From a virus: a stretch of 64,000 nt of DNA. The DNA lies in IMG/VR virus record IMGVR_UViG_3300014325_000010, positions 33,130 through 97,129 of that record; one strand, written 5' to 3'. The notes under the pieces were generated by a model. The model did not search any database. It was not told where the DNA came from and saw only the letters and a list, made by a program, of their open reading frames with translations. A program made the translations under genes and the position numbers. Positions 20,121 to 39,169 of this stretch are shown here, piece by piece (the first letter of the stretch is position 1; every line of letters starts with the position of its first letter).

Positions 20121-21023
20121 CTATGATGCTTCTATTCGTTCCCAAAATTCCCCAACTATGTTTGACCAATCAAAAGTTGTTCTTACCTCTTCAAATTCTC
20201 TATCTGTGACAGGCAATTCTTTCTTCAGTACTTGTTCAATTGACGCAGTCACCTTCTCCGAACATTCTTCTGGAATAAACACTGCCCACTTATCAAACCA
20301 TTTACGATAGTGTGGTGCGTCAAACATAATTGGACGTGCACCACACATTAGTCCTTCAGCAGCAGGTAATTCAAATCCTTCGTCTCTACGAAGACCAGCT
20401 ACAAATCGAGAACGTGAATAAAGACTTGCCATCTCAAAATCTGGGATATTGAGTTTAGCAGTTGAGTGTGGCCCAATATGAAAATCAGGTCCAACCTGGA
20501 AATGTTTACCTTCGACTCGACGAACAGCTTCTGCACATTCTCGAATACACTCTGCATCAGGCACATAACCTGTAGTCAACATCGTAATGTCACGATCTCG
20601 TTTTCCGTTTCTATTGAATACAGAAGAATCAACACCAAGAGGTGCATAGTAAAATGGGAAATCATATGTTGGAGCAAATTTGGTCAAATCGAGATAGCTC
20701 CAAACTAAATCTGCATTAGTCCAAAGTGGTTTCCAAAAGTCTGGAACCGCTTGTTCTGTGCTCATTAAGCAACACTGCACAATAGCATAGCGCTGATCAT
20801 GTGCCATCTCGTTTTCGATTAACTTATCGATAGGTATATCAGCAAAATTACCAACTCCAACCACAATATGGACAATCAAATCGGCCATCTGTGGGTGTTC
20901 TACAATAGCTATATGTGATGGTGCATGCGCAGCTAAAGCAGTTGAAATTCGTTGTATACTTCTTGCAGGAATATCAGATTTAACGTAAGCTCTTAACATA
21001 ATCCAGCACTCGCCATTAGCCAC
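20121..21023 (-). CDS. Glycosyltransferase-like protein (GT-B C-terminal domain)
   Basis: 300 aa. RRDEGFELPAAEGLMCGARPIMFD is an EX7E-type motif. Confidence 0.55.
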   Translation of the reverse strand: MANGECWIMLRAYVKSDIPARSIQRISTALAAHAPSHIAIVEHPQMADLIVHIVVGVGNFADIPIDKLIENEMAHDQRYAIVQCCLMSTEQAVPDFWKPLWTNADLVWSYLDLTKFAPTYDFPFYYAPLGVDSSVFNRNGKRDRDITMLTTGYVPDAECIRECAEAVRRVEGKHFQVGPDFHIGPHSTAKLNIPDFEMASLYSRSRFVAGLRRDEGFELPAAEGLMCGARPIMFDAPHYRKWFDKWAVFIPEECSEKVTASIEQVLKKELPVTDREFEEVRTTFDWSNIVGEFWERIEAS

Positions 21024-21778
21024 TTCTTAGGATTTTTCTCTTCACTCCACACAAGCGGTTTTGCTGTTTCTCTACCTGCACAAATAGTACAAGCATCTAA
21101 GGGTTTTGCTTGTGTAAGATAAGCATGTAACGCAGATTCCGTTAGCCCATCAATCTTAATACCATCTGTACCAAATTCGCGATTTTGAATAAGCATTGGA
21201 ATATGAGGCCCACAACAACATGTAAAGAAATACCCATAACTGGCACACCTACTAAAATGACGGAAGAAACAACCATCGTATTTGGTTTGTGTTGCTGCTG
21301 GACTAGTTGGAACTGGTTCGAGCATTGTCATGAAATTTGGATTAAGTCTTTCATCTCGAGGTGAGTAGACTACTCCTTCATCTGCACATTTAGCAATAAT
21401 CCATTGAATATCTTGATCTGTCAATTTACCTGGATAGATTGACACAACAAGATGATCAAAAGATTTCCAAAATTCGGGGTATTGCCTCTTTAGCAACATC
21501 CCATTAGTCCATACTTCAGTAATGTCTGCTACCTGTGAATCACGTGCAATTTTAAGAATATCTACTAATTTGGCATTCATTAGGGGTTCACCACCAAGTG
21601 CACCCCATTTATCTGCATGCAAGATAGTTGCCATATGACTGAGATCTTTTTCAACTTGCTTAGGATCTGCAGACCATGGGCCGCGTTCCCGCCATAGTGG
21701 AACACTGTGATTACAACCAATGCAGGATAATTGACAAGCTTGAGTAATATCAGTTTCGAGGTGAGGAATACGTATCAT
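20993..21778 (-). CDS. Radical SAM enzyme with C-terminal Cys cluster (SPASM/twitch-like)
   Basis: 261 aa. CQLSCIGC is a CX3CX2C radical-SAM motif near the N-terminus. Additional Cys-rich C-terminal segment (FFTCCCGPH...CTICAG). Confidence 0.7.
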   Translation of the reverse strand: MIRIPHLETDITQACQLSCIGCNHSVPLWRERGPWSADPKQVEKDLSHMATILHADKWGALGGEPLMNAKLVDILKIARDSQVADITEVWTNGMLLKRQYPEFWKSFDHLVVSIYPGKLTDQDIQWIIAKCADEGVVYSPRDERLNPNFMTMLEPVPTSPAATQTKYDGCFFRHFSRCASYGYFFTCCCGPHIPMLIQNREFGTDGIKIDGLTESALHAYLTQAKPLDACTICAGRETAKPLVWSEEKNPKKWLMASAGLC

Positions 21779-22137
21779 ACACCACTATCCGAACAAAAAG
21801 TCCACATACCGGCGGTAAGATATCCATGAAATTTACAACCATCTAATCTTCGAATAGATGGTTGAAGTGTGGGTTTTTCTCTATTTCCATCCCATTGCCA
21901 ACATCGTTCAAGTTTCTCACCTGTAGCAATAGGTAGGCTCATTAATTCACCACAGCCACAAGGACAGATATAAATAATGGAACTATATGGCCCAATTCCA
22001 TTATCTGCAAAATTATAAGCACCAGGTGTTTCATTATCCCAGATATGGTCTACTTTTGAAGCTTGGACTGGATCAATCATATTAGCTTTCTTTGATTGAA
22101 TGAAACCAACTTCGAATTTTGACCCACCATATTGCAA
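21775..22137 (-). CDS. Cys-rich small protein (zinc-ribbon-like), conserved phage hypothetical
   Basis: 120 aa with ICPCGCGE and CWQWDGNREKPTLQPSIRRLDGCKFHG motifs. Start/stop overlap with the radical SAM gene. Confidence 0.45.
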   Translation of the reverse strand: MQYGGSKFEVGFIQSKKANMIDPVQASKVDHIWDNETPGAYNFADNGIGPYSSIIYICPCGCGELMSLPIATGEKLERCWQWDGNREKPTLQPSIRRLDGCKFHGYLTAGMWTFCSDSGV

Positions 22138-22308
22138 TAAATGCTGGAATTCTAATTCTAATAAAACAAACAGCCTTCAATTTGCCTAATTCCCAAGTTT
22201 CACATAATTCGACAGGCTCTGTTTCAAAAGAGTCACGCCAAAGAAATAAGCTGCCAGTTGGCCAATCATTAGGTTCTTCTAATTCTTTTGTACCATCACG
22301 GTAATATT

Positions 22309-23535
22309 TCATGCACGTACCACTCCAATCCCACCCCAATCACCATGAACTGTAATTTCAATTTTATCCACCATATTAAGATCATGCCAGAAACGAGGCA
22401 CTCCACCAGCTTCAGCTTCCGAGAAGTGGCGAGCATCAGCATTAATATCATGGAAGGCAATAAAGCCTCCGGGTTTGACTATTGTCTTATAAAACGCATA
22501 GTCAGAAGCTACACCTTGATAAGAATGATCTCCATCAATAAAAAGAAAATCTAAGAATTTTCCTGTTAATAATTCCAAGACTTTACACCTTACAGATGTG
22601 TCTTGTGATTTACCGTAAATACTTCTAAAACGAGGGAATCGTTTTTCCAACGCATTTATTTTATCATCAATTCCAATCACGAGACCGCTACAAAGATCAT
22701 GCCATAGGGCACTAGTGCCCCCACGATGGACACCAATTTCTAATACATCCACTGGACTCTGCGCTCGAACTATTTTGGTTAAGGAGCTTATTTCTTTAGA
22801 ATGTTGCTCCATTGGAATATCCGGTGGAAATATACTAGCATTCTGTTTAATCACATCGTAATAATCTGCTCTTTCGAATACGTCTAATTCAGAATCAGGA
22901 GTGACATTAACAATACTCATTCCTTGACGACGAGCATTAAGAAATGATTTTCGCATACGTTCGGGTTGAGGTGGAAAAGATCTTGATCCTTTTGGCCAAT
23001 AATTTTTGTCAAAGTGGTTATCATCTTGACTGCCTGTAATCCATTCAATCTCTTCTTCATTATAAGAATCATCCACTAATGCTTTTCGCATAATATGAGA
23101 CTTATTCCATTTGAAATCATTACCAAGCAAATAGGCAGAACTACAACCCATATAAGCAGCAAGTTGTAGCATCATATACATAACTGTTCCACCAAAATAA
23201 AATGGTGGTTCAATAGAATATTTCTCACAAGCTAGATCACGAACAAAGGGAGTCTTACAATATTCACCTTTAAACGGAATGTCATCTGCTACAAATTTGA
23301 TTGATCCGACAAATTCTTCAAAACCTTTACCCCACTGTTCATAATCGAGGAGGTCCTCCAACGCCCAATACGTTGTAGGAAATCCAAGTTTTTCAAACAG
23401 TAAGTACCCTCGATTACACGAAAAGGTGATCTCCGATTTAAGACCACTCAAGTCCATCGAGGCGAGGCTAGGACCACTTCCTAATAGAAAGCAACGTTGT
23501 CCTAGATGGCGATTGTGAAAATCTGTAATAGTCAT
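22309..23535 (-). CDS. Two-domain protein: Maf/DUF115-like (putative nonulosonic-acid-type glycosyltransferase) N-terminal domain fused to a CmcI-family SAM methyltransferase
   Basis: 408 aa. N-terminal CFLLGSGPSL glycine loop as in DUF115/motility-accessory-factor proteins. C-terminal LEIGVHRGGTSALW...FLFIDGDHSY...GGFIAFHDI matches the CmcI/rhamnosyl-O-methyltransferase class I methyltransferase pattern. Confidence 0.65.
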   Translation of the reverse strand: MTITDFHNRHLGQRCFLLGSGPSLASMDLSGLKSEITFSCNRGYLLFEKLGFPTTYWALEDLLDYEQWGKGFEEFVGSIKFVADDIPFKGEYCKTPFVRDLACEKYSIEPPFYFGGTVMYMMLQLAAYMGCSSAYLLGNDFKWNKSHIMRKALVDDSYNEEEIEWITGSQDDNHFDKNYWPKGSRSFPPQPERMRKSFLNARRQGMSIVNVTPDSELDVFERADYYDVIKQNASIFPPDIPMEQHSKEISSLTKIVRAQSPVDVLEIGVHRGGTSALWHDLCSGLVIGIDDKINALEKRFPRFRSIYGKSQDTSVRCKVLELLTGKFLDFLFIDGDHSYQGVASDYAFYKTIVKPGGFIAFHDINADARHFSEAEAGGVPRFWHDLNMVDKIEITVHGDWGGIGVVRA

Positions 23536-23984
23536 TGGAGCCTTGCAATTGCTTTTTTAACGTGGAAGTCTGTTAAACCAACGTCCCATTTGGTTTTAAT
23601 CAAAGCTTCACGTAAGTTTCCCATGTCACTGTCGTCATCTAGAATAACAAATTTTTCGGCTCCATGCTTGGCTAGCCACTTTTGAATTTCGCTACCTCGT
23701 GGTTCATTGGTAAGAAAGGGTGTTGATCCTATAATACTCCCTCTAACACCAGCTTGTTGTAAAATTTTCTTCACGTTCCAAAATCGTCGCCATGTGGATG
23801 AAATAACAATAACGGAATCTGTCGCGTGTGTGATCTTATTAAGTCTCCTAACCGCCATAGGATCAATCCAAGTTCGGCCAGCTTTTTTGGGCCATCTACG
23901 GATATTATTCATTACGCCATCAATATCTAAAAATACAACTTTCATACACGTGCACCCATCATTGTATAAGCCGCTCGCACACAA
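23532..23984 (-). CDS. HAD-superfamily phosphatase (small, sugar-phosphate phosphatase-like)
   Basis: 150 aa. VVFLDIDGVMNN has the DxDGV HAD motif I. Downstream acidic ILDDDSD is a motif IV candidate. Confidence 0.6.
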   Translation of the reverse strand: MCASGLYNDGCTCMKVVFLDIDGVMNNIRRWPKKAGRTWIDPMAVRRLNKITHATDSVIVISSTWRRFWNVKKILQQAGVRGSIIGSTPFLTNEPRGSEIQKWLAKHGAEKFVILDDDSDMGNLREALIKTKWDVGLTDFHVKKAIARLQ

Positions 23985-25135
23985 AATTCGTCAATTTCAG
24001 CAGGAGTAACAGCTAAATTTGGTCGAAGTCGAACACACTTTTCACCTGTAGGAATCATAATAGTTGCAGATCCCCACATGGCTTCAACAAAATAGTCACG
24101 TTCCGAACGACTTTCAAAATCAATGGCTAGAAGTAAACCCACACGACGACATTTTAATCCTAGACTGATTAATCTTTCTTCGAGGAGCTGACCTTTCGTT
24201 TCCACACTTTGTAAGATTTTTTCTTTTTCGTATACTTCGAGGATTGCTCGACAACGAATCATGTCCATGACATCACCGTCCCAAGTAACTTCAAGACGTG
24301 CTGGATCATCAAAAATCTTACTAAATTGTGTCTTAACCATAATCCCAGATACTTGTGTCTTTTTACCAAAGACTACAATATCTGGTACGATACCAATTCG
24401 TTCAAAATACCACATAGAACCTGTTCCACCAAATCCTGTTTGAATTTCATCAAAGATTAGTGGAATACAATTTTCACTGCACAGCTTACGTAATTCCAGA
24501 ATTAATGCAGTATTAAATACAAGATCTCCAGATGTACATTGAATTGGTTCAATCAGAATACCTGCAATATTACCAGATTTTACATAGGTAGTACATTGTT
24601 TTAGCAAAAGTTCAATATTTTGTGCATTTGGATTAGCCACTTCACAAGAATTGCTAGAGTAAAAACCAGCAAGTCTTTTTGATGCCGGACCAGTTCTAGA
24701 AGCTAGGAATCCACCATACCCATTGATACCATGAAAATTATTTGTGAATATAAGCATTTCGCCATGGTGTCTCAAAATAGCAGTTTTAACCGCTGCTTCA
24801 ATAGCTAATGCTCCGGTACAACAGAAATGAAAATAAGCAAATTCTGCCATTGATGGATGTAATGTAAATGCTGAAATAAATTTTTCAGCTTCCAAACTAT
24901 CCATTTCACAGTTTGCCACCTTCACAGTGGAGTGTAAAAACATCTCATTGATATATTCCACTTTATGGAATATTGGATGATTATAACCAATAGGTAAAGA
25001 AGAATACATACCAAAGAAATCTAAAATCTCTCGCTGTGTATTAACATCATATACATAGGAGCCATGACTTTTAGATAAGTCAGCTTTAATATTGAATTTA
25101 GATGAACGATGAGATTGTTTAATCATGATACACAT
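23942..25135 (-). CDS. PLP-dependent aminotransferase, class III-like
   Basis: 397 aa. IFDEIQTGFGGTGSMW and VVFGKK (candidate Schiff-base Lys) are hallmarks of class III aminotransferases. Confidence 0.7.
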   Translation of the reverse strand: MCIMIKQSHRSSKFNIKADLSKSHGSYVYDVNTQREILDFFGMYSSLPIGYNHPIFHKVEYINEMFLHSTVKVANCEMDSLEAEKFISAFTLHPSMAEFAYFHFCCTGALAIEAAVKTAILRHHGEMLIFTNNFHGINGYGGFLASRTGPASKRLAGFYSSNSCEVANPNAQNIELLLKQCTTYVKSGNIAGILIEPIQCTSGDLVFNTALILELRKLCSENCIPLIFDEIQTGFGGTGSMWYFERIGIVPDIVVFGKKTQVSGIMVKTQFSKIFDDPARLEVTWDGDVMDMIRCRAILEVYEKEKILQSVETKGQLLEERLISLGLKCRRVGLLLAIDFESRSERDYFVEAMWGSATIMIPTGEKCVRLRPNLAVTPAEIDEFCVRAAYTMMGARV

Positions 25136-26195
25136 GTATTACTTTGTCTCGACTAACTGCGAGACGGGTTGCTCGACTATCTCCAGTAACTGTGATTTGA
25201 TGCCATGTACCTCGAGGGATAGAAATGATATCTCCTTTATTTGCGATTATCTTTTTATCTTCAATTACGTACTCATATTGACCTTCGAGAATTAACCACC
25301 ATTCATCCCAGTCTGGATGATAATGACGTCGATTACCTTCTTTTGGTAATTGGCTAATAACTGTCGCCGAATTACTTGGTTTCTGTATTACACGTCTTGC
25401 TCCACCATTTACAGGCAAATCGGCAAGTAGTTGGTCTAGATTAATAGAATTCTGTACTGATAAGTCAATGTCTCCAACACCATCATGATACAATACTTCT
25501 ACCGCGTTAGATTCAGAGTGTTCTGTTGGGGACCAATAGCGATTGATTGCGCGTGATTTACGTCTTTCGAGAATAGCTTCTGCCAGTTCAAAATCTCCCT
25601 GTGTGTCAATGTCTAATGCAGAATCTCCATCTAAAACTAGATGAGAAACTCTACCAGAACTATAACCATAGGTACTTGTAAAATCCTTCCACGCAAAAAT
25701 CCCATTACACATAATGTCTATAGGACGTAGTTGTTGCGATGGTAACATTGGTTTGAATGGATTAAAGTTGGTAGGGGTTCCTTGAATAAAAGCTTCTGCA
25801 TAGAGACGTTTTACTGATAAAACTGTATTAGCACCATCAAGGATTAGATCTCTGGCACGATGTAGATCAATTCGAGAAAGAAATGGGGAGGTTGGTGTGA
25901 TCTGGAATAAAACATCACACGGAACATCTTCTAAAAAACTTGGGATAAAATGTTCACTTGTAGCAGAGTCCACAGCTAATTCTGGTTGACGATGATAAAA
26001 CTTGACACCCAAAGATTTAGCAAGATCTCCTAAGATATCTGCTTCAGAATTAATATAAACCTCATCAAATATTTTAGAATCTCTAGCTGTTTCAACTACC
26101 CAAGAAATTAGAGGTTTATCTCCTAAGAATCGAAGATTCTTAAGTGGAATTCTTGTACTACCAAGACGTGCAGGAATCATAGCCACATATTTCAT
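25119..26195 (-). CDS. CMP-sugar cytidylyltransferase (CTP_transf_3: KdsB/NeuA/PseF-like) fused to a C-terminal cupin domain
   Basis: 358 aa. N-terminal MKYVAMIPARLGSTRIPLKNL is the acylneuraminate/CMP-Kdo cytidylyltransferase signature. C-terminal HYHPDWDEWWLILEGQYEY...GDIISIPRGTWHQI is a cupin two-motif pattern. Confidence 0.7.
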   Translation of the reverse strand: MKYVAMIPARLGSTRIPLKNLRFLGDKPLISWVVETARDSKIFDEVYINSEADILGDLAKSLGVKFYHRQPELAVDSATSEHFIPSFLEDVPCDVLFQITPTSPFLSRIDLHRARDLILDGANTVLSVKRLYAEAFIQGTPTNFNPFKPMLPSQQLRPIDIMCNGIFAWKDFTSTYGYSSGRVSHLVLDGDSALDIDTQGDFELAEAILERRKSRAINRYWSPTEHSESNAVEVLYHDGVGDIDLSVQNSINLDQLLADLPVNGGARRVIQKPSNSATVISQLPKEGNRRHYHPDWDEWWLILEGQYEYVIEDKKIIANKGDIISIPRGTWHQITVTGDSRATRLAVSRDKVIHVYHD

Positions 26196-26839: not shown

Positions 26840-26842
26840 AAA

Positions 26843-32000: not shown

Positions 32001-33588
32001 CTTTTAACGATTCACTTACAGAAGTCTGCTCGGGATTAAGAGTGGTGAAAACAGTGTCAGCAACTTTAAGAACTTCTGTTATCGAAGCATTTAAATCTAT
32101 GCTGGCAGTAAGAGTATCAACAACTTTAAGAGATTCAGTTTGTGTTGTCTGTTCAGGATCTAACGAAATAGTAGGAGTGTCAACTATTTTAAGTGATTCT
32201 GTTTGTGACGTCTGTTCTGGATCTAAAGTTGTGAGTGGTGCGTCCGCAACCTTAACATTTTCCGTTAACGAATTCTGTAGAGGATCTAAAGTTGCAAAAA
32301 CTGTATCAGCAACCTTTAACGTTTCAGTTCGAGAGGATTCCTCTGGATTAAGATTTGTTGTGACATTATCCGCAATCTTAAGTGGTTCGCTTAAAGAAGT
32401 TTGTTCTGGATCAAGAGTAGTAAGCGGAGTATCTATAACTTTGAGTGGTTCAGTGAGTATGGTCTCTTCAGGATTTAGAAAAGTAGTAACAGTGTCTGCT
32501 ACCTTGATAATCTCAGATACAGACGCATTTATATCTATAGAAGCAAATACTGTATCAGCAACTTTAAGCGAATCCGTTAAAGATGTCTGTTCTGGATTTA
32601 AAGTTGTAAACGGAGTATCAACAACTTTTAATGATTCAGTTGGACTTGCTTGTTCTGGATCAATAAAGGTAGATACAGTATCTGCAATTTTCAATGACTC
32701 AGATACAGAAGTTTGCTCTGGATCTAAAGTAGCAGTTACAGTATCAGCAACTTTTAAGGAATCGGATACTGAGATTTGTTCAGGATCTAAAGTTGTTAGA
32801 ACAGTGTCAACAACTTTAAGCGATTCGGTAATTGACGACTGTTCGGGGTCTAACTTGGTAAGAACAGTATCAACAACCTTTAAAGAATCCGAAACAGATA
32901 CTTGCTCCGGATCTAAAATAGCAAATACACTATCTACCACCTTTAAAGATTCAGATACAGAAGTCTGTTCTGGATCTAAGGCAGGAGTTACTGTATCAAC
33001 GACCTTTAAAGATTCTGTCTGTAATACTAATTCAGGGTCTATCTTAGCAAGAACAGTATCAGAAATTTTTATAGATTCGGTTAATATCGTTTCTTCTGGG
33101 TTTAGAAGAATCGTAACCGTATCAGAAACTTTTACATTTTCTTGTAAACTTGTTTGTTCTGGATTTAAAGAAGCAGTAACAGTATCTACTACTTTAAGAG
33201 ATTCAGGTCCTGCTGTTTGAGAAAGATCAGTACCTGTTATAAGAGCTGCAATAACAGGACCATCAGTTACGTGTACGACACCAAGTAATTGTGCTATTCC
33301 TTGGTGAAAATCAACGATTTTTAAAGATTCCGATAAAGATACACCAAGGATGAAATCATCCTTGATTTCGATATTTTCTGTCAGAACAGACGTGGGTTGT
33401 AGCGGCGTCAACTCTGCCGTTACAGTATCTGTAATTTTTAAATTTTCAGTGGAGGATGCCGAAGGACCAGAAGTAGTGACAGACGCCGTCACCGTATCAG
33501 TAAGGCGTATGCCTTCTGAATAGTAACGGCCGTCGTCTATTCTTATTGTTTCTGGAGTAACTACTATGGAGAGATCAGCCATGCGCAA
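29017..33588 (-). CDS. Giant repetitive fibre-like protein (1523 aa, about 65 tandem 21-aa repeats with consensus xSLKVVDTVxTxLDPEQTSxx)
   Basis: A single minus-strand ORF spans 4.5 kb. Translation shows 21-aa periodicity (63-bp diverged DNA tandem repeats), each unit carrying conserved L-K-V-x-D and D/N-P-E-Q-T/S. The C-terminus has a distinct approximately 10-aa IDVVGSYxTI repeat. The opposite-strand ORFs in this span are repeat artefacts. Confidence 0.8.
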   Translation of the reverse strand: MRMADLSIVVTPETIRIDDGRYYSEGIRLTDTVTASVTTSGPSASSTENLKITDTVTAELTPLQPTSVLTENIEIKDDFILGVSLSESLKIVDFHQGIAQLLGVVHVTDGPVIAALITGTDLSQTAGPESLKVVDTVTASLNPEQTSLQENVKVSDTVTILLNPEETILTESIKISDTVLAKIDPELVLQTESLKVVDTVTPALDPEQTSVSESLKVVDSVFAILDPEQVSVSDSLKVVDTVLTKLDPEQSSITESLKVVDTVLTTLDPEQISVSDSLKVADTVTATLDPEQTSVSESLKIADTVSTFIDPEQASPTESLKVVDTPFTTLNPEQTSLTDSLKVADTVFASIDINASVSEIIKVADTVTTFLNPEETILTEPLKVIDTPLTTLDPEQTSLSEPLKIADNVTTNLNPEESSRTETLKVADTVFATLDPLQNSLTENVKVADAPLTTLDPEQTSQTESLKIVDTPTISLDPEQTTQTESLKVVDTLTASIDLNASITEVLKVADTVFTTLNPEQTSVSESLKVVDSVSTTLDPEQTSTSDSLKVVDTVSTTLDPEQATVTEALKVADTVLTTLNPEQTSLTEPVKVADTVLAFLNPEETSATDSLKVVDTVTTTLDPEQSSLSDSLKVVDTVTAITDEVVSLTEPVKVADSVLTLLNPEQTSQSDSLKVVDSVFTTLDPEQATQTESLKVADTVTADLDKIVSLSESVKVADSVFTILDPEQASQTESLKVVDTVITTLDPEQTTQTESLKVADTVTAILDKLVSLTESLKVADSVSTTLNPEQTTQTESLRVVDTPSTSLNPEQTSVQEALVISDTVTVSRDIDVSLTENVIVQDTPIADENPRPVAVPAESLSVVDSIAASIGAGTLISNESIQIADGPVNARLNPDFIYLEENLSVSDTVATTLNPEQTLVIESLKVVDSVNTVLDPEQTSQTEPIKVVDTVTTTLDPEQASSTETIKVADSVTAILDEIVSLTESLKVADSVSVTLDPEQTSVIENVKISDNVSTLLNPEQASQSEALKVVDSVFTTLDPEQAAQTETLKVSDSVAATLNPEEISLTESLKVVDLAATTLNPEETSQSDSIKVADTISTTLDPEQTTQSENLKVVDTITALIDSQSVLLIDSVKVVDTVLAFINPEQTSLTEPLSITDVVSTVLNPEQTTQSESLKVADSVSVTLDPEQITQIESVKIADTISVILNPEETSQSESVKVADTVSTLINPEQTTLTESVKVVDTVTASITVNLTANISESVKVADSVQAAVDYISVTQTESLKVADTILVSIDLSANLSESVKVSDSLTPSLGEITSVTESLKISDDITVVLNPEIASINETVKVVDSVSALITADISSLLTEAVKIQDTVTTEINPLELRVQDENLQVHDTVIVGIDLSVLAIENVAIADIVVIYIDSIVTEITSETIKISDSVQASRDLEVILIESLRIKDGPVGAGTPITIDVIGSYQTIIDVVGSYITTIDILGQYQSGIIDVVGSSQTVIDAIGTVVETIDIVGGEEV

Positions 33589-33778: not shown

Positions 33779-34984
33779 CTAACTCAACCTAGCAAAGATT
33801 CCAGCACCAACTTGTGGACTTGAGCTCATGTTAACATTTTCATTAGCTGGAGTATAATCCACATAAATGCCCATAAAACAAACACAGGCTACTCTAGTAG
33901 TAACATCTGTTTTTATCACTTTCATAACTGGTGAAGAACCAATTACAACAGATGGGTTATCAATAAATTGGCCAGCAACAGTTTCACTCGACCAATGATT
34001 ACTAGAACTATTAGTATTTGCATATAAACCATGAGCTCCGGCATCACTCCCAACACCATTACCAGCTGCGCCCAAAGTTAATGCGTTTACTATTGGATTA
34101 CTAGTAAGTTCTACAGTTCCAGTTTTTGTTCCAGTTTGAATATCTTCACCATGTAGAAGTACAATCTGAATAGCATTGATTTTATCCGAAGCTTGTATAC
34201 CACCGCTAGAATAAGCCGCAATTGTCGCAGCATAAGCTGCAGATCCACTAGAAGATGCTGACTCAATATTAGTTGAATCCGTTTCATTTGCACTTGCTAC
34301 ACCTGGAGGTGGTAATGCACTTACTGATTGCCATAACCCTGTGTTAGTCGAACCTCCACCGCGTGTCCAATTAGTAACTAAACTGTCTCCAGTTGCAGTT
34401 AATAAGATAACTTTTCCAGGATCAGGAAATTGCGAATTATTAACAATTAAGTCATCAAAATAAACAGTGCATGCATCAGCTTCTGTTCCTGAAGCACCAA
34501 TCGCTGATGGAGCAGGCCATGTGGAAGGAGATCCGACCACTTCAGTAGAACCGTCTATTCTAAGAACAGGTACACTAGAGCCGTTAGCTTGACGAACTTC
34601 AATACGATAGAATCTTGTTGTGTCTGTTAAGCGTGTTGTAGATGTTCCAATACTAGTTGTAGCATTATAGTATTCAATGGAACCATTTGGGTTAAGACGC
34701 AAGTTAATTGTAGTAGTGCTACCAAAAATAACACGCTGAACACTAGAAGGTAAAACAGTTACACAAATATAGAATCGTATATATCCTGGTATAGCAATGA
34801 CTAGATTAGCCCAGGCTGCTACACCACTAGTCGCATTAATCTTTAACGAATGCGCACCACTGCGTACAATAGTTGACTCTATCGTAGCACCAGCAGTTAC
34901 TAGCACACACGAGTCAATTGATTGTCCAGTTGCTCTGGACAATGACTCATTTCCTTCCCAGCCACAAATAAGTGTTGTTGACAT
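33779..34984 (-). CDS. Putative structural (fibre/appendage) protein
   Basis: 401 aa, S/T/G/N/A-rich with low-complexity SSSGSAAYAATIAAYSSGG. Sits upstream of the giant repeat gene. Confidence 0.45.
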   Translation of the reverse strand: MSTTLICGWEGNESLSRATGQSIDSCVLVTAGATIESTIVRSGAHSLKINATSGVAAWANLVIAIPGYIRFYICVTVLPSSVQRVIFGSTTTINLRLNPNGSIEYYNATTSIGTSTTRLTDTTRFYRIEVRQANGSSVPVLRIDGSTEVVGSPSTWPAPSAIGASGTEADACTVYFDDLIVNNSQFPDPGKVILLTATGDSLVTNWTRGGGSTNTGLWQSVSALPPPGVASANETDSTNIESASSSGSAAYAATIAAYSSGGIQASDKINAIQIVLLHGEDIQTGTKTGTVELTSNPIVNALTLGAAGNGVGSDAGAHGLYANTNSSSNHWSSETVAGQFIDNPSVVIGSSPVMKVIKTDVTTRVACVCFMGIYVDYTPANENVNMSSSPQVGAGIFARLS

Positions 34985-34990
34985 TTATAT

Positions 34991-35362
34991 TTATGTAGGA
35001 GGCCAAGGCTCGATTGCACCGCTTACACCGCCCATATCATCAGCCAGTGCTTTAATGTATTGTACTTCTGGTCCATTTCCAAAATTTGCCGCAATAGCAT
35101 ATAATAGATCACGAAATTGCTGCAGTGTAACTGCCGGAGTAGTATCAATTACTAATCGACGACATAAATTACAAGAACCTGGTGGATCAGCTGGAGACTG
35201 ACCAACTGGAGCAGTTTGCCAACCACTTAAACCGCCATTCCAACAACGTTGGGCAATCTGTCGTTGCTGAGGAGTAAGACTTGCTAAAATTGCTGAACCT
35301 TGTCCAGCGTTAGCAACAATACTACTTAAATCAGACAACTCATAAAAAATTGCAAATGCCAT
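34991..35362 (-). CDS. Hypothetical protein
   Basis: 123-aa ORF in the same operon. Confidence 0.4.
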   Translation of the reverse strand: MAFAIFYELSDLSSIVANAGQGSAILASLTPQQRQIAQRCWNGGLSGWQTAPVGQSPADPPGSCNLCRRLVIDTTPAVTLQQFRDLLYAIAANFGNGPEVQYIKALADDMGGVSGAIEPWPPT

Positions 35363-35371
35363 GATTTCTCC

Positions 35372-36016
35372 TTAAAAAACGCTTGATCCTATTGTTGGCT
35401 CACCAAGAGCAGCGGTCAAACTATTGACTAAAACAGTCCCACCACCAAAATCATCTAATACTGCCCCTGGACGATCAATACTCATGCCAATAAAACCAGT
35501 ATTATATGTTCCATCTTGGCGTTGCATTAAACTATTCCATCCACTTCCTGTGTTTAAATATGCAGTTAATTGATCACCTATCTGTTCAAACCCTAGCTTA
35601 TCGCCATCGTTAAATGTTTGAAGTAAAGAAGCACCAAGCATAGTTGTTACATTATTATCAATTCGGTATATTTCACAATGTTGTACACCGCTAAAGATAT
35701 AAGCAACAACAAAGTATCCATCTACACCTGAAGTATCTGGAGAAACTACTGCAAGGTAAAGTGCAACTCCTTGATCAGTAAAACAGGTTGTCATTGTAAG
35801 CCAAACTTCAGCATTTGGCCCAAAAGAGCTTGTATTCCAATAAGATTCACTTGTAACCGAAGAACTAGTAGTAATAACTGCGTTCGATTGAAGAACTAAT
35901 GAAAGATCTGGGGGAACACTCAAAAATAACGGGCCTAGCCAATTACCACCATCCAGTGGATTTTCGTTCGCTCGGTTAAACCGATCTAAGATCGTAAGAT
36001 TTGTTGGAAATGACAT
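35372..36016 (-). CDS. Hypothetical structural-module protein
   Basis: 214 aa, beta-rich. Start overlaps the upstream gene stop (36016). Confidence 0.4.
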   Translation of the reverse strand: MSFPTNLTILDRFNRANENPLDGGNWLGPLFLSVPPDLSLVLQSNAVITTSSSVTSESYWNTSSFGPNAEVWLTMTTCFTDQGVALYLAVVSPDTSGVDGYFVVAYIFSGVQHCEIYRIDNNVTTMLGASLLQTFNDGDKLGFEQIGDQLTAYLNTGSGWNSLMQRQDGTYNTGFIGMSIDRPGAVLDDFGGGTVLVNSLTAALGEPTIGSSVF

Positions 36017-36501
36017 TAGCTAACTCTAGCGTCTAACCTATCAACAGATTCGCAAGCTTGGACATCCCCATCAAGAATAATTGTATCACTACCAGCATCA
36101 TATCGAGGCTTTAACCGACGTGTAGCAAGAAACCGCAACGCATCTCCAATTGTCACTTGTGCTAGATTAGGAAACCTCGTATCGACTTCTGTAGCTGTGT
36201 ATCCTGCATTGATAATCAACGTTCTTATGGCAGAACGTTGACCAGCGGTTAGAGAAGAAAGCGGGTCATCTAATCGAGAAAGTGGCACACGTGTTACACC
36301 AGTTAATGCATTAATTAGAGTAAGTGTCGCTGACGAAGCATTAACCTTAACAATGGCTTGATTTCCTAAAACTTCAACTTCAGACCAATTACCTCCATCG
36401 GCCAGAATTTGTGAAGTTAGATCATCAACGATAACATAACGAGCCACACGATTACTAAGAGTTTTTCTCGCATACGGTGCGATAAAATATGCTATTGGCA
36501 T
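36016..36501 (-). CDS. Hypothetical protein
   Basis: 161 aa. ATG overlaps the stop of 36501-37409 (ATGA-type junction). Confidence 0.4.
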   Translation of the reverse strand: MPIAYFIAPYARKTLSNRVARYVIVDDLTSQILADGGNWSEVEVLGNQAIVKVNASSATLTLINALTGVTRVPLSRLDDPLSSLTAGQRSAIRTLIINAGYTATEVDTRFPNLAQVTIGDALRFLATRRLKPRYDAGSDTIILDGDVQACESVDRLDARVS

Positions 36502-37409
36502 TAGTACATTACTCCAGTTCCGCGATCTACATGCTTAAATACCAGCGAAGTATCAATAATATAAGGATATTCTTTAGCGGCAAACTTTCCCCAACCTGCC
36601 TTTTTCAATAGTCCGCGTTTAATTGTTTCGCCACTCCACCAAAGATCAGATGTGCCGGAAGCAACGTGGACGCCACCATTTTCAATCCAAACCCTAGCAG
36701 GCTGCTGAAAAATCTTTTTCAACGGAAATGGGTATCCAGGAAGCGTATACATTTCAACGTCTTCTTCCTGAGCCCAGGCTTCGAGGATAGACCGATGAAG
36801 GAGCAATGCACCTGTTGGCACGCCGTCCACCCAGATTACGTCGCCGTATTTCCAATCACGGTAAGCTCGAGTTCCGCCACCTCGGTATGCAAGAGGTTCC
36901 GGACCAAGTAGTTCAATACCACCTTTCTTGCCATTTCGAATTTCGGCGGAACCCTTGATATGGTACAAACCACTCACAACGGGAGGAGCCTTTTTACGTT
37001 CCATCTTCCAGAACCACCTGTCGAAAACAAGCAGCGTTTCCGGAGGTGGACATGTATCATCTTCGATAAGAATTAATGCTCTAAATGGACCACGAAGTAT
37101 CGTGTCTACAAGCAGATTTTGAGCATCAGCGACATTATAACCCATAGGCGTGGATCGCACCACACTGAAGTTTGGTGGTGTGACCATACCTACCATCATA
37201 TTGTACCATTCGATGCGTACAGTCCCTAGTGTTGGTGTGCCAATCAATACTTGGACACTGGTATTTGAAGCTTTTGGATTAACTGGATTCAAGGCAATAT
37301 TAGATTGTTTACGTGCAAGTTTGGCCTGTTTTCTCATAAAGGGTGTTGTAACTCCCGACCATCCACTTGCAGCAACTTGCGAAACTGAACTAATTGACTT
37401 TTCACTCAT
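36501..37409 (-). CDS. Putative glycosyltransferase (GT-A-like)
   Basis: 302 aa. VQVLIGTPTLGTV followed by LILIEDDTCPP (DxD-like acidic motif). Confidence 0.4.
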   Translation of the reverse strand: MSEKSISSVSQVAASGWSGVTTPFMRKQAKLARKQSNIALNPVNPKASNTSVQVLIGTPTLGTVRIEWYNMMVGMVTPPNFSVVRSTPMGYNVADAQNLLVDTILRGPFRALILIEDDTCPPPETLLVFDRWFWKMERKKAPPVVSGLYHIKGSAEIRNGKKGGIELLGPEPLAYRGGGTRAYRDWKYGDVIWVDGVPTGALLLHRSILEAWAQEEDVEMYTLPGYPFPLKKIFQQPARVWIENGGVHVASGTSDLWWSGETIKRGLLKKAGWGKFAAKEYPYIIDTSLVFKHVDRGTGVMY

Positions 37410-37633
37410 AATTTGTCTTCGTCCGCTAGTACAACTTTATTTTCTTTTAACACAGCATATACATGTTGATAAATGTCTGCTATGCTCGTACAACCTAGAA
37501 TTGCTGCTCGACGGTATCCTTCTTCTTTTAATGGAGCACATCTTTCACATGCCCAAAACATACTAGCGGTCCATTCATTGCACCACCAGCATCTATGCAT
37601 GTTTGTATTCCCCGATGCGCTCGAGCCAACCAC
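37406..37633 (-). CDS. Small zinc-ribbon protein
   Basis: 75 aa, CWWCNEW...CERC. Confidence 0.35.
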   Translation of the reverse strand: MVGSSASGNTNMHRCWWCNEWTASMFWACERCAPLKEEGYRRAAILGCTSIADIYQHVYAVLKENKVVLADEDKL

Positions 37634-38357
37634 CTGGATTCATTGTTAGCAAATATCGTTCACACACTGGATCCTGTCGCCATTCATTTGGATGCAAATT
37701 CAAATAATCTTCAACACCACCTCTTGCACCGCGGTCACCATAACGACCTTCTTCATCAGGCACCCAAGCAATATTTGTGTCTTCAACCACAAGACGATCA
37801 CCTACGCGGCACATAGGTGCGTAGAGTTCAAGTTCTTTGAGGACATGAGCTGCAGAGTGATCTGCATCAAGGCTAACTAAGAGAGGGTACTGGATCTCCT
37901 CTCGAATAGCATCAGCTAACCGTGGATCAGTAGAATCACCAGCTAAGAATACAATTCGAGGGTGATTACACTTAACACGGTCTTCAAAGTCAATTGTGAA
38001 GATTTTACCATCTTCAATTTGCAAAGAGTCCATCAAAAACGCAAACCACAGTGCGGAAGCACCAGCATAAGTTCCCGTTTCAATAATGGTTTTCGGTTTG
38101 TGATCATTAATCAAAGCTTGGTAAATCCAAAGGTCATTTGGACACTTCATCATACCAATACCAAGAAAATGAGTATAATGCCAGGTATGTGGTGCGTTAT
38201 ACCACACCTCATGGTATTGCTGAAGAAGTTTACCGTGTTCTTCACGTGTTCGTAGAATTCGTTGTTCTAATTCAGCAATAGAAATAGAAGCATCTTCATC
38301 CACTATGGTAAGTGGCTGTACGCCCGGAATTTTAGGATTAATTGTTGATGTGCTCAT
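37593..38357 (-). CDS. CmcI-family (cephalosporin hydroxylase / rhamnosyl O-methyltransferase-like) SAM methyltransferase
   Basis: 254 aa. IIETGTYAGASALWFA ... LVSLDADHSAAHVLKELELYAPMCRVGDRLVVEDTNI. Confidence 0.65.
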   Translation of the reverse strand: MSTSTINPKIPGVQPLTIVDEDASISIAELEQRILRTREEHGKLLQQYHEVWYNAPHTWHYTHFLGIGMMKCPNDLWIYQALINDHKPKTIIETGTYAGASALWFAFLMDSLQIEDGKIFTIDFEDRVKCNHPRIVFLAGDSTDPRLADAIREEIQYPLLVSLDADHSAAHVLKELELYAPMCRVGDRLVVEDTNIAWVPDEEGRYGDRGARGGVEDYLNLHPNEWRQDPVCERYLLTMNPGGWLERIGEYKHA

Positions 38358-38857
38358 TGTTTAATAGCTTGAAGTGTCACATTATAGCTGATGCTACCCT
38401 GAGTTCCAGGAACTCTAGCAGTAGCCAATGGATGCCATGGTTTAGGTTGAGGTCTACCTAATGATTCATGTAAACTGTACAATGGACCACGAGGATCTAG
38501 CCACAGAAAGCTGGCTTCGACGATACGTGTGACATGCTGTGGATCACTTACCCACCCATGTGAATCATCACCACCATATGGACCACTAATATACACAATA
38601 CCAGAAGGTTGCACTACACGATGTAGCTCATCCCACCAAGCAAAGAATAACGGTGGTGGAACATATTCGATGACATGAGTCACTACTGCGGTATTCACAC
38701 AATTATCGGGCAGAGGGAACGGGAGTGTTCGAGGATCATGAGGGACATCTCCCTGCGGTCCCAACGTAACACTCCTTGGTTGCGGGGTTCCTCCCAACGA
38801 AACGTCAAGAAAAATTCCCTTCTTACTCTCGATAAGCTTTTTGATTTTTGAAGTCAT
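38354..38857 (-). CDS. Methyltransferase-like protein (Methyltransf_11-like core, divergent SAM loop)
   Basis: 167 aa. GIFLDVSLGG ... LPFPLPDNCVNTAVVTHVIEYVPPP...WWDELHRVVQPSGIVYIS resembles the post-motif-I region of class I methyltransferases. The glycine loop is degenerate. Confidence 0.4.
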   Translation of the reverse strand: MTSKIKKLIESKKGIFLDVSLGGTPQPRSVTLGPQGDVPHDPRTLPFPLPDNCVNTAVVTHVIEYVPPPLFFAWWDELHRVVQPSGIVYISGPYGGDDSHGWVSDPQHVTRIVEASFLWLDPRGPLYSLHESLGRPQPKPWHPLATARVPGTQGSISYNVTLQAIKQ

Positions 38858-39162: not shown

Positions 39163-39169
39163 TTCACCG

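Follow-up and report, generated by a model that had tools for sequence, protein, structure and literature searches.

Glycosylation of virion proteins by the phage's own enzymes has been described in mycobacteriophages, in which phage glycosyltransferases modify the capsid and the tail tube (Freeman 2023, as cited in PMC12619734). In the cultured cyanophage S-CBS4, two glycosyltransferase genes and a methyltransferase gene lie between those for the portal and the protease. The locus described here lies in a stretch of 64,000 nucleotides (the window) of the IMG/VR record IMGVR_UViG_3300014325_000010, which comes from an uncultured large tailed phage. It most likely represents a more elaborate version of mycobacteriophage virion glycosylation, with an unusual capped glycan. 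One of its glycosyltransferases (the GT-B protein encoded at 13855-15087) shares 29% identity with gp014 of S-CBS4. In contrast to the S/T-rich acceptor sites of mycobacteriophages, the C-terminus of the window's MCP is not S/T-rich, which counts against a virion target. Genes were assigned with HMM and structure searches, the Pfam gathering score being the acceptance line for domain calls.

An insertion in the head operon

All ORFs between 2.8 and 48.2 kb of the window are encoded on the minus strand, and they include the following:

46227-47783, minus: TerL (phrog_2, 2e-28)
42963-44432, minus: portal protein, upstream boundary of the insertion (PF06381 4.8e-27; phrog_146 9e-62)
18182-20032, minus: prohead protease/scaffold, downstream boundary (PF09979, DUF2213, 2.5e-8; phrog_530, weak)
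17682-18128, minus: head decoration protein
16621-17634, minus: HK97-type MCP
13855-15087, minus: conserved GT-B (GT4-type) among head-tail joining genes (PF00534 3e-9; phrog_2170 5.6e-26)

The portal is 47-58% identical to those of IMG/VR relatives (L002-L014), and the protease/scaffold is homologous (30-37% identity) to the gene that follows the portal in them. The distance between the two genes is 22.9 kb in the window versus 0.26-3.4 kb in nine relatives with portals in that identity range, which bears out the insertion at the portal/protease junction, a variable site, recognised in the first-pass annotation. GC content is 37-40% within the insertion, compared to 43-49% in the head genes on either side. 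The genes had also been described as co-directional and tightly packed, and indeed, besides sharing a strand, those in 20121-38857 are mostly separated by -56 to +9 nt, apart from three wider gaps (81-183 nt). Given these overlapping start and stop codons, together with the lack of any excess of promoter or terminator signals inside the cassette, its genes are predicted to be co-expressed with the late genes. The further GT-B noticed among the head-tail joining genes is confirmed; it occupies the same position, with 37-45% identity, in L003, L005-L007, L011 and L013, and, judging from these sequences, it would be a family-wide partner of the cassette.

A modular core cassette

The enzyme-dense part of the insertion is restricted to 20121-28567, plus a methyltransferase pair at 37593-38857, while 28.6-37.4 kb holds mostly ORFans and a 1521-aa repeat protein, and not sugar enzymes. 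The single pathway of about 18 kb originally proposed gives way to a modular 8.4-kb core cassette (20121-28567), which is the real unit and consists of a widespread base and a rare CMP-sugar/Maf add-on. The base trio comprises:

27854-28567, minus: GT2-like protein, 237 aa, opens both the core cassette and the trio (PF00535 7e-4)
20993-21778, minus: twitch radical SAM enzyme, SpeY/BtrN-like, of the sugar dehydrogenase/epimerase class (PDB 7wzv and fold)
20121-21023, minus: GT1/GT4-like glycosyltransferase, about 293-300 aa, last cassette gene (PF00534 0.0036)

The core cassette is collinear in four further independent phage contigs (L017-L020; 50-85% amino acid identity), each time adjoining portal, MuF, protease or MCP genes, and the same gene order appears with 100% identity in a separate Logan assembly, so the arrangement is more than chance. 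Contigs of 112-161 kb from JGI, ENA and Logan also carry the cassette proteins, and in other assemblies the regions flanking the window contain nothing but phage genes. The metagenomic origin of the sequence and the many ORFans in 28.6-42.6 kb could suggest an assembly chimera or decaying, functionless cargo. Nevertheless, the identical independent assembly, the long contigs with the same proteins, the four collinear contigs, and the intact ORFs with catalytic residues invariant across homologues make this barely credible.

Other contigs reveal the modularity. L101 (TerL 77% identical) encodes the GT2-like, radical SAM and GT1-like proteins after the portal, without the CMP branch. L102 holds GT2-like, methyltransferase, radical SAM, GT1-like and GT-B genes contiguously among the head-tail joining genes, at the exact site where the window keeps its GT-B, and L103 combines a separate MptE-like gene with FkbM, GT2-like and radical SAM genes. 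Radical SAM homologues fall into at least 197 clusters, versus about 11 for the Maf fusion and for close relatives of the cytidylyltransferase-cupin. From this distribution, the base trio (plus methyltransferase and GT-B) appears to be widespread, and the rare CMP-sugar/Maf branch would be a later gain.

In the HMM check, the earlier calls of cytidylyltransferase, SIS, HAD, aminotransferase, FkbM, CmcI and the GT-B at 13855-15087 were upheld (SIS_2, FkbM, CTP_transf_3, Cupin_2, Aminotran_3, HAD_SAK_2, CmcI, Methyltransf_24/CmcI and GT-B above their gathering scores), whereas those of MptE-like/DUF115, Radical_SAM and the two cassette glycosyltransferases fell below. The GT2-like protein stays weak (20 bits versus 23.3), with a marginal PDB profile search, an invariant DDDE, and PF00535 matched by three of four homologues; it is 49-62% identical to its counterparts in L017, L018, L020, L101 and L102. 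The GT1-like call (17.3 bits versus 26.4; EX7E motif; weak PDB GT-B matches) is rescued by its hhalign match to the solid GT-B at 13855-15087 (93%, E 2.5e-7). The radical SAM protein (23.8 bits versus 29.5) was correctly identified, as indicated by its CX3CX2C motif, a GGEP motif, an extra invariant Cys, a PDB profile match to 7wzv (2.8e-27), and an AF2 model (pLDDT 95.9) that Foldseek matches to SpeY (E 8e-22, TM 0.84) and BtrN (6e-7). SpeY and BtrN are solved members of this radical SAM class, with sugar or aminocyclitol substrates, and several twitch enzymes of this type act on already glycosidically linked residues. This assignment makes the chemistry likely to differ from that of the pathway first proposed.

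The CMP-sugar/Maf branch and the predicted glycan

In this phage, the second branch would be an insertion that separates the gene for the GT2-like protein from that for the radical SAM enzyme. Its genes and the methyltransferase pair are the following:

38354-38857, minus: 167-aa protein with a weak Methyltransf_11 match (PF08241 0.0026, below cut-off)
37593-38357, minus: CmcI/rhamnosyl O-methyltransferase family protein (PF04989 5.2e-38)
27276-27860, minus: GmhA-like SIS protein (SIS_2 PF13580 1.7e-12)
26192-26839, minus: FkbM-family methyltransferase (PF05050 3.6e-15; TIGR01444 2.7e-21)
25119-26195, minus: CTP_transf_3 cytidylyltransferase fused to a metal-site cupin (PF02348 9e-25; Cupin_2 PF07883 3e-14)
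23942-25135, minus: class-III aminotransferase, nearest lysine epsilon-aminotransferase (Aminotran_3 PF00202 1.2e-52)
23532-23984, minus: small cap-less HAD phosphatase, DIDGV motif (PF18143 HAD_SAK_2 5.9e-31)
22309-23535, minus: Maf-like (MptE/DUF115) domain fused to a CmcI/YrrM-type O-methyltransferase (Methyltransf_24/CmcI above gathering score)

The cytidylyltransferase-cupin matches the CMP-Neu5Ac synthetase 1qwj (1.3e-20) and conserves R10, S13, R15, K19, R22, Q98, D195 and D197 invariantly, as well as H291, H293, E298 and H332 in the cupin domain. Its CTP domain scores far under the PseF and KdsB equivalog cut-offs and below every other one, so the molecule that it activates might be something other than an ulosonic acid. 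Among bacterial and archaeal loci with this fusion, 30 of 41 lack NeuB within 10 kb. One cytidylyltransferase-cupin lies in a flagellin glycosylation island with Maf (Alteromonas) and another beside a complete legionaminic-acid gene set (a Terriglobia genome), which speaks for a role in glycosylation. The SIS protein matches C. jejuni GmhA (1tk9, 1.4e-17) but reaches only 86 bits versus the 209 of the gmhA cut-off (TIGR00441), and replaces the catalytic Glu65 of GmhA with Gly while keeping His180. The nonulosonic, Kdo-like or heptose-like product initially suggested is unproven in view of these data. As already noticed in the first pass, no NeuB- or KdsA-type synthase is recognisable, with no PF03102 or PF00793 (KdsA/DAHP) match in ORFs of at least 115 aa at 20-43 kb. 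This lack of an ulosonic acid synthase, the missing SIS glutamate and the sub-threshold GT2-like call count against virion glycosylation.

The aminotransferase reaches 247 bits versus the 521 of the LAT_fam cut-off and matches M. tuberculosis LAT (2cin, 2e-49). No PDB sequence relative was found for the HAD phosphatase, whose family was first described in RNA-repair contexts, an observation that also counts against virion glycosylation. The MptE-like/DUF115 domain scores 25.9 bits versus 34.6, and its nearest structural neighbour is the flagellin glycosyltransferase Maf, which likewise supports glycosylation. The CmcI and 167-aa proteins are 68% and 77% identical to those of L018.

In the proposed mechanism, the base module (the GT2-like, GT1/GT4-like and GT-B proteins, the SpeY-like twitch enzyme and O-methyltransferases) would use host nucleotide sugars to build and tailor a short glycan attached to a virion protein, with the radical SAM enzyme oxidising or epimerising a sugar hydroxyl carbon. 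In the second branch, the divergent SIS isomerase and the HAD phosphatase would process a host sugar phosphate, and the LAT-like aminotransferase would aminate an aldehyde or keto carbon, plausibly the one generated by the radical SAM enzyme, by analogy with BtrN and its aminotransferase. The cytidylyltransferase-cupin might then activate, and perhaps isomerise, the product as a CMP-sugar, which the FkbM/CmcI enzymes would methylate and the Maf-like domain would transfer as a cap. The gene content, the folds with their conserved catalytic motifs, the modular synteny, the solubility of the enzymes and the phage-only context are directly established, whereas we infer what the substrates are, in which order the steps run, that CMP-sugar chemistry proceeds without a NeuB/KdsA synthase, and that the acceptor is the virion.

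The same enzymes might synthesise a free aminoglycoside-like pseudo-oligosaccharide, since the radical SAM enzyme is structurally most similar to SpeY (spectinomycin) and BtrN (butirosin), aminoglycoside pathways typically include class-III aminotransferases, GT4 enzymes and methyltransferases, and a DHQ-synthase-like cyclase and GFO/IDH dehydrogenases are frequent in bacterial cytidylyltransferase-cupin loci. We consider this very improbable, as neither a cyclitol synthase nor an exporter or resistance gene occurs in the phage cassette, both the Maf-like domain and CTP_transf_3 indicate transfer onto a macromolecule, and a diffusible product would hardly account for a location inside the structural operon.

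Probable target of the predicted glycan, and neighbouring genes

TM-like segments are missing from all cassette enzymes, and a search for Gtr, Wzx, Wzy, O-acetyltransferase or polyprenol-P glycosyltransferase partners found none, so a cytoplasmic rather than a membrane target is likely. We give roughly even odds to a phage-encoded, late-expressed cytoplasmic system of glycan building and transfer whose most likely substrates are the phage's own particle proteins. The virion target, already proposed in the first pass, is favoured by the recurrent placement in structural operons of several phage lineages and by the mycobacteriophage precedent.

Alternatively, the cassette might remodel the host LPS core, capsule, S-layer or flagellin, blocking superinfection or adsorption of progeny to debris, with soluble glycosyltransferases that would use lipid-linked or cytoplasmic host acceptors. 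Soluble GT2/GT4 enzymes can indeed use lipid-linked or LPS-core acceptors at the inner membrane face, which counts against a virion target. LPS and capsule are common substrates of GT4/GT2 enzymes, and a homologue in the Microcystis phage Mae-JY09 is annotated as RfaG. Moreover, for the cytidylyltransferase-cupin, the SIS protein and the aminotransferase, the nearest homologues in cells are encoded in loci for cell-surface or flagellin glycans, and flagellin glycosylation is a known role of Maf enzymes. However, this appears unlikely considering the missing membrane components, the translational coupling to late structural genes without a promoter/terminator signature of its own, the structural-operon position conserved in several lineages at two different sites, and the fact that no integrase or lysogeny genes were seen in the window or its flanks.

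The glycosyltransferases, aminotransferase, radical SAM enzyme and methyltransferases could also decorate modified phage bases to evade restriction (on phage DNA base hypermodification, see Pyle 2024, as cited in PMC12619734). The enzymes are soluble throughout, which speaks for this reading, but no hydroxymethylase, thymidylate-synthase-like gene or DNA-kinase partner occurs among the scanned window ORFs, and the cassette is linked to head/tail rather than replication genes in every contig examined. Phage glycosyltransferases, PLP enzymes and radical SAM enzymes do take part in such hypermodification; to our knowledge, Maf-like and CTP_transf_3 enzymes have no role in it, and we regard DNA as an improbable target.

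The remaining genes of the insertion are the following:

41517-42620, minus: DUF4082 protein, 367 aa, S/T-rich (PF13313 2.9e-29)
40844-41476, minus: 210-aa S/T-rich (23%) ORFan, without Pfam/PHROG match (89.5% identity in L018)
39998-40510, minus: homing-endonuclease-like protein (phrog_314 1.1e-9)
39170-39889, minus: pair of small proteins (115 and 118 aa) travelling with the cassette (homologues with 66-79% identity)
39131-39166, no strand: 15-bp perfect hairpin just past the 118-aa gene, the strongest in 37.9-49 kb
33779-37409, minus: five ORFans (302, 161, 214, 123 and 401 aa), several S/T-rich
29017-33582, minus: 1521-aa protein with about 60 tandem 21-aa repeats (ESLKVVDTVTTTLDPEQTS; 63-nt period), candidate fibre
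28649-29017, minus: 122-aa ORFan (phrog_1084 0.0024, function unknown)
26843-27301, minus: 152-aa ORFan, only in the window and L019
21775-22137, minus: DUF6527/BubE-like small protein inside the cassette (PF20137 3.6e-18)

The giant Ser/Thr-repeat protein (S+T 26%; PHROG matches of repeat type only, function unknown) had been taken as a pointer to glycosylation of the phage particle. It is missing from L017-L020 and has no homologue in isolated phages, so it cannot be a conserved acceptor; it appears specific to the window phage and outside the conserved module. No other giant protein is obviously rich in S/T, and its lack of conservation alongside the cassette counts against virion glycosylation.

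Homologues of the DUF4082 protein (38-40% identity) adjoin the cassette in L017, L018 and L020 and are absent from cassette-negative relatives, which suggests co-inheritance. The 115-aa/118-aa pair, without family matches, is absent from L002-L014 and lies immediately downstream of the cassette in L017, L018 and L020; for the hairpin past it, the T-tract on the coding (minus) strand is weak. The five ORFans have no Pfam/PHROG match even at E <= 5; GT-A support was sought for the 302-aa protein and none was found, and this protein is 86% identical in L018. The DUF6527/BubE-like protein belongs to the family of the serine protease of Bub operons (10.1101/2024.11.21.623953) and retains the CPCGC...CxxH motif and the Ser.

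Layout of the head operon and the inserted block

Every gene from 2.8 to 48.2 kb of the window lies on the minus strand, and the structural genes are arranged as listed below.

Structural genes of the head operon, in order of transcription (coordinates, strand, product, position)
46227-47783, minus, TerL, first in transcription order
44447-46226, minus, three small membrane or receiver-domain proteins, interval between TerL and portal
42963-44432, minus, portal, upstream of the accessory block
18182-20032, minus, prohead protease/scaffold, downstream of the accessory block
17682-18128, minus, head decoration protein, after the protease/scaffold
16621-17634, minus, HK97-type major capsid protein (MCP), after the decoration protein
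13855-15087, minus, GT-B, among the head-tail joining genes
after the head-tail joining genes, minus, tail tube, chaperone and 2077-aa tape measure

The distance between the portal and the protease/scaffold is 22.9 kb, versus 0.26-3.4 kb in the IMG/VR relatives with 47-58% identical portals, and the inserted DNA has a GC content of 37-40%, versus 43-49% in the flanking head genes. The accessory block is an insertion at a variable site. Between 20.1 and 38.9 kb most neighbouring genes overlap or stand 10 nt apart or less, and no enrichment of promoter-like or terminator-like sites was detected in the cassette region. The proposal of the first-pass annotation that a sugar gene set, co-directional and tightly packed, separates the portal from the protease/scaffold has thus been borne out.

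The other assemblies that carry this phage (L105 and L106) are contigs of 112-161 kb without bacterial flanks, which indicates a large siphovirus-like genome. The phage encodes the tape measure protein at 5430-11663, a 1452-aa HYR/fn3 protein downstream of it, and a Prim-Pol/VapE primase (59328-61649); neither tRNA genes nor Rfam families were found in the window. All three genes between TerL and the portal (44447-46226, minus strand) encode membrane-type proteins, one of which (44447-45052, minus strand) joins a response-regulator receiver domain (PF00072, 3.7e-18) to an N-terminal transmembrane helix, unusual in a packaging/head operon. The tail-tube-like 166-aa protein (12533-13033, Phage_TTP_12) has a paralogue between the protease/scaffold and decoration genes of several IMG/VR portal relatives (L003, at 14770-15147, L005, L006, L007, L010, L011 and L014), a head-module copy that is absent from the window.

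The core cassette and its modular build

The single gene set of about 18 kb that had been envisaged gives way to a smaller conserved unit, a modular 8.4-kb core cassette (20121-28567) with the order GT2-like, SIS, 152-aa ORFan, FkbM, cytidylyltransferase-cupin, aminotransferase, HAD, Maf-like/methyltransferase fusion, BubE-like, radical SAM, and GT1-like. This order is conserved, at 50-85% amino acid identity, in four phage-like contigs (L017-L020), and an independent assembly contains the cassette at 100% identity. In L019 it adjoins the protease/scaffold, MCP (91% identity), and GT-B genes, as in the window; in L020 it lies downstream of a portal with only 41% identity, and in L018 downstream of a MuF-like gene. 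The cassette is accompanied, in permuted order, by a 115-aa/118-aa gene pair and by DUF4082 proteins, to which L018 adds 210-aa, MT167, CmcI, and 302-aa genes.

Homologues of the radical SAM protein form at least 197 clusters. The best 120 of these show 56-84% identity and measure 243-301 aa, with almost all at 260-271 aa; the contigs that carry them reach 138 kb. The Maf fusion and the close relatives of the cytidylyltransferase-cupin are found in about 11 clusters each. This difference is explained by the contexts of three contigs with a radical SAM homologue. In L101 (TerL 77% and portal 72% identical to those of the window), the portal is followed only by GT2-like, an 86-aa gene, radical SAM, and GT1-like. 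In L102 (portal 49%, MCP 56%), the portal and the protease are adjacent, and contiguous GT2-like, MT24, radical SAM, GT1-like, and GT-B genes are held among the head-tail joining genes, in the same place as the GT-B of the window. In the third, L103, MptE-like is a gene of its own, accompanied by FkbM, GT2-like, and radical SAM. These contexts indicate a base module (GT2-like, radical SAM, and GT1-like, with a methyltransferase and a GT-B) that recurs widely in this phage group, always in the structural operon. The cassette of the window is this base module, into which a CMP-sugar/Maf branch has been inserted after GT2-like and before radical SAM. The Maf-like domain, in turn, has been joined to a pre-existing methyltransferase, as the standalone MT24 of L102 is 38% identical to the C-terminal domain of the fusion.

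A homing-endonuclease-like gene (39998-40510, minus strand, phrog_314) lies within the insertion, and the cassette of L020 has an HNH/AP2 gene close by, as well as a MuF-like gene with an intein; module shuffling may be driven by mobile endonucleases. Directly after the 118-aa gene, a perfect 15-bp GC-rich hairpin (39131-39166), the strongest between 37.9 and 49 kb, could signal a transcript boundary within the insertion or a junction at which the permuted modules recombined.

The cassette also includes a standalone DUF6527/BubE homologue (21775-22137, minus strand), found as well in L018 (14091-14393), L020 (14497-14769), and L102 (198-509), which retains the zinc-finger cysteines (CPCGC...CxxH) and the Ser/His pair. 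In bacterial Bub operons, BubE is a serine protease that cleaves off ubiquitin-like conjugates (10.1101/2024.11.21.623953). The phage copy could act in counter-defence against the conjugation of ubiquitin-like proteins to virion proteins.

Enzymes of the cassette and the proposed CMP-sugar branch

Profile searches placed SIS_2, FkbM, CTP_transf_3 with Cupin_2, Aminotran_3, HAD_SAK_2, and two copies of CmcI, the second being the C-terminal domain of the protein encoded at 22309-23535, above the Pfam gathering score, in agreement with the identities first read from the sequence. The calls of radical SAM, GT1-like, GT2-like, and MptE-like/DUF115 scored below threshold, and three of these four were checked by other means. 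The radical SAM call stood, through its match to SpeY. The GT1-like call also held, since this 300-aa protein aligns to the GT-B at 13855-15087 across the EX7E nucleotide-sugar region (hhalign 93%). The PDB profile matches of the GT2-like and GT1-like proteins are marginal, and the assignment of GT2-like from its sequence is weak. A 302-aa ORF (36501-37409, "LILIEDD") was rejected as a GT-A, as hhalign gave it 0.1% probability against the GT2-like profile and it had no PDB or Pfam match. For the HAD phosphatase, no sequence relative was found in the PDB.

The radical SAM protein (20993-21778) holds a CX3CX2C motif (C15, C19, and C22), a GGEP motif, and extra cysteines (C170, C187-189, C230, and C233), all invariant among homologues. 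Its sequence profile matches 7wzv (2.8e-27), which was identified as SpeY via Foldseek, and its predicted structure finds SpeY first (E 8e-22, TM 0.84) and BtrN (4m7t) next. The cluster motif, the auxiliary-cluster cysteines, and the modelled fold identify it as a twitch radical SAM enzyme of the SpeY/BtrN type, with a predicted C-H activity on carbohydrates. Like BtrN, it is paired with an aminotransferase. Its identity to the known enzymes is only 26%, its substrate is putative, and it is encoded in a phage structural operon, not in an antibiotic gene cluster. A free aminoglycoside-like product is one of the rivals to a protein-linked glycan.

The class-III aminotransferase is a fold-type I PLP enzyme (PF00202, 179 bits) related to LAT (2cin, 2e-49), and as its score of 247 falls below the LAT equivalog cut-off of 521, no substrate is assignable. 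The SIS protein has the expected fold (PF13580, 1.7e-12; 1tk9, 1.4e-17) and scores 86 against the GmhA model TIGR00441 (cut-off 209). The catalytic Glu65 of GmhA is replaced by Gly in every phage copy and by Asp in the bacterial partners, with His180 retained, so the name GmhA is not warranted for the SIS proteins of the phage and cellular sets. In the Maf-like fusion, the central MptE-like/DUF115 Rossmann domain (about 230 aa) is present and followed by the methyltransferase, and the N-terminal (Maf_flag10_N) and C-terminal domains of Maf are absent. The protein is not a member of the Maf family, and at most a Maf-like mode of action may be proposed for it.

The cytidylyltransferase domain of the cupin fusion (25119-26195) scores above the Pfam threshold (PF02348, 88 bits, cut-off 22.6) and matches 1qwj (1.3e-20), and R10, R15, K19, R22, D195, and D197 are invariant across 33 homologues. 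This Arg/Lys loop and DxD probably correspond to the catalytic residues of CMP-ulosonic acid synthetases; the fusion retains a CMP-Neu5Ac-synthetase-type loop and DxD, together with a complete cupin metal site (H291, H293, E298, and H332). Its equivalog scores are too low for PseF (TIGR03584, 78 against 205.7) and for the KdsB models (25-47 against 155-281). As noticed at the outset, no NeuB/KdsA-type synthase is recognisable: among the ORFs of 115 aa or longer in the 20-43 kb interval, none matched NeuB (PF03102) or DAHP_synth_1 (PF00793). The ORFans of 401, 214, 161, 123, 122, 152, 210, 115, and 118 aa have nothing in Pfam (searched to E <= 5) or PHROGs, and most of them are missing from L017-L020, which makes a cryptic synthase among them less likely.

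Relatives of the fusion are widespread, with 771 clusters (E <= 1e-5) in a metagenome protein collection and 363 tblastn-confirmed relatives in GTDB species genomes, the best 80 of which cover many phyla. They include Terriglobia/Acidobacteria (the best, 48-51% identity), Nitrospirota, Omnitrophota, SAR11, SAR86, Marinimicrobia, Bacteroidota, Thaumarchaeota, and Thermoplasmatales. In a Terriglobia genome, the fusion adjoins a complete set of legionaminic-acid genes, with a LegF of its own.

Genes within a 10 kb range of a full-length cytidylyltransferase-cupin at 41 cellular loci
GFO/IDH oxidoreductase, 29/41
SDR, 27/41
2-hydroxyacid dehydrogenase, 24/41
DHQ-synthase-like, 23/41
class-III aminotransferase, 23/41
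SIS_2, 20-22/41
NeuB, 11/41 (absent from 30/41)
flagellin, 1/41
radical SAM, FkbM, HAD_SAK_2, 0/41

According to these counts, the phage has only SIS, cytidylyltransferase-cupin, and aminotransferase in common with a largely NeuB-independent, uncharacterised cellular pathway. The nonulosonic or heptose identity initially suggested for the sugar is therefore not sustained, given the missed equivalog cut-offs, the absence of NeuB from 30 of the 41 loci, and the loss of Glu65. None of the GmhA/GmhB heptose, KdsD/KdsC/KdsB Kdo or Kdo8N, DAHP-derived heptulosonate, and Leg/Pse routes is assignable from the data. The cellular set (L015, L016, and L021-L100) consists of cytidylyltransferase(-cupin), SIS_2, GFO/IDH, two SDRs, DHQ-synthase-like, 2-hydroxyacid dehydrogenase, and class-III aminotransferase, mostly without NeuB nearby. 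Apparently uncharacterised, this set is found not only in flagellated bacteria but also in SAR11, SAR86, Thaumarchaeota, and Thermoplasmatales. In 2-deoxystreptamine synthesis, BtrN takes the place of NeoA, and the phage radical SAM may by analogy stand in for the NAD-dependent dehydrogenases of the cellular pathway.

Probable target and comparison with known systems

The cassette is a probable phage glycosylation system acting on the virion, as first proposed. No TM-like 19-mer (Kyte-Doolittle > 1.6) was found in the enzymes of 20.1-28.6 and 36.5-38.9 kb, no Gtr/Wzx/Wzy-type partner was found, and the cassette occupies two positions in different phages, both within structural operons. Together with the lack of transcription signals of its own and with the precedents, this favours a cytoplasmic target late in infection, the virion especially. 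Capsid or tail proteins would be the candidate carriers of the glycan. DNA hypermodification, which soluble enzymes would also suit, is a rival to this reading; the two structural-operon sites and the precedents point to the virion.

The giant repeat protein can no longer be regarded as the acceptor. This 1521-aa protein (29017-33582, minus strand), with about 60 near-perfect 21-aa repeats, 26% S+T, and a C-terminal IDVVGSYQT-type repeat, is not a cassette companion and has no homologue in L017-L020 or in isolated phages. Its gene flips the local GC skew, which is positive at 30-34 kb.

Modification of the host envelope or of flagellin is another rival. The flagellin O-glycosylation islands of Campylobacter, Aeromonas, and Magnetospirillum (Maf 5mu5) likewise combine a CTP_transf_3 activating enzyme with soluble cytoplasmic protein glycosylation, and in Alteromonas the same cytidylyltransferase-cupin fusion lies in such an island, with Maf. 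In contrast to these islands, the phage lacks NeuB/PseI/LegI synthases, PseB/C, and LegB/C, no flagellin or NeuB was found in the window, and its Maf-like domain, without the flanking Maf domains, is fused to an O-methyltransferase. The serotype-converting (Gtr/Oac/Wzy) type is not matched either, as the cassette has no Pfam families of integral-membrane flippases, GT-C, acyltransferases, or polymerases.

A virion target has its closest parallel in mycobacteriophages. GTs, in some cases with a methyltransferase, are reportedly encoded in or adjoining the structural genes, and capsid and tail-tube subunits are said to be glycosylated in the cytoplasm (Freeman et al. 2023, Cell Host Microbe, cited in PMC12619734). 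Demonstrations of phage enzymes glycosylating the virion are known essentially only from these phages, whose GT sets are simple. The window shares the embedding of GT genes in a virion structural operon. Whereas those systems use a few GTs on host nucleotide sugars, the window has about 10 enzymes, adding a sugar-phosphate isomerase, a phosphatase, an aminotransferase, a CMP-type activating enzyme-cupin, a twitch radical SAM, and a Maf-like transferase; unlike in the mycobacteriophage system, its MCP has no S/T-rich C-terminus. Virus-encoded sugar activation or modification and GTs also decorate the virion in giant viruses (Mimivirus fibril sugars, CroV Kdo genes, and chlorovirus MCP glycosylation), but these eukaryotic viruses use UDP- or Kdo-type pathways with their own synthases, while the CMP branch of this tailed phage is synthase-less.

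Phage-encoded virion glycosylation is already known; the extended enzymology and the modular CMP-sugar/Maf add-on are new. No paper on this cassette was found in a literature search, and none of 50,697 records of isolated phages matched 20-43 kb at the nucleotide level. The fusion had no relative in a scan of IMG/VR viral contigs and none in isolated phages (INPHARED, tblastn), where the sole match was the CTP domain of a Moritella record. The Maf-like domain has only weak relatives in INPHARED, "sialyltransferase-like" proteins of Caulobacter phages CcrColossus and CcrPW; DUF115 proteins are present in uncultured Caudovirales and ChoanoV1.

The cassette suggests that the head operon of an environmental phage can house a complete glycan-tailoring pathway, in which sugar activation and radical chemistry are combined with a Maf-like transferase, and that such pathways evolve through modular insertion. 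Possible roles of these glycans are the tuning of adsorption or the protection of the virion against antibodies, proteases, or conjugation-type defences of the host. A more specific scheme is advanced very tentatively and is on balance doubtful: the phage would make a new CMP-activated, aminated, and O-methylated sugar without a NeuB/KdsA-type aldolase, through SpeY-like twitch radical SAM oxidation, an omega-type aminotransferase, and the cytidylyltransferase-cupin, and would then use it for Maf-type capping of the glycans of its own virion proteins. If true, the scheme would be the first case of Maf-type protein glycosylation in a virus and would provide a handle on the uncharacterised cytidylyltransferase-cupin pathway of bacteria and archaea, including SAR11 and Thaumarchaeota. 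Being compact (about 10 genes, all soluble), the phage version offers an experimentally tractable entry to the uncharacterised cytidylyltransferase-cupin/SIS/aminotransferase set.

The same insertion site, from the portal to the head maturation protease, is occupied in Synechococcus phage S-CBS4 by gp014-gp016 (GT-GT-methyltransferase), where gp014 is 29% identical to the GT-B of the window. That block has three genes only, without radical SAM, CMP-sugar branch, or Maf-like domain, and its role in glycosylation is putative. In the record of this cultured cyanosiphovirus (NC_016766.1, 9916-12282), a glycosyltransferase, a galactosyltransferase, and a SAM-methyltransferase are encoded with an HNH gene between the portal and the head protease, which makes S-CBS4 a tractable model for virion glycosylation at the portal-protease locus.
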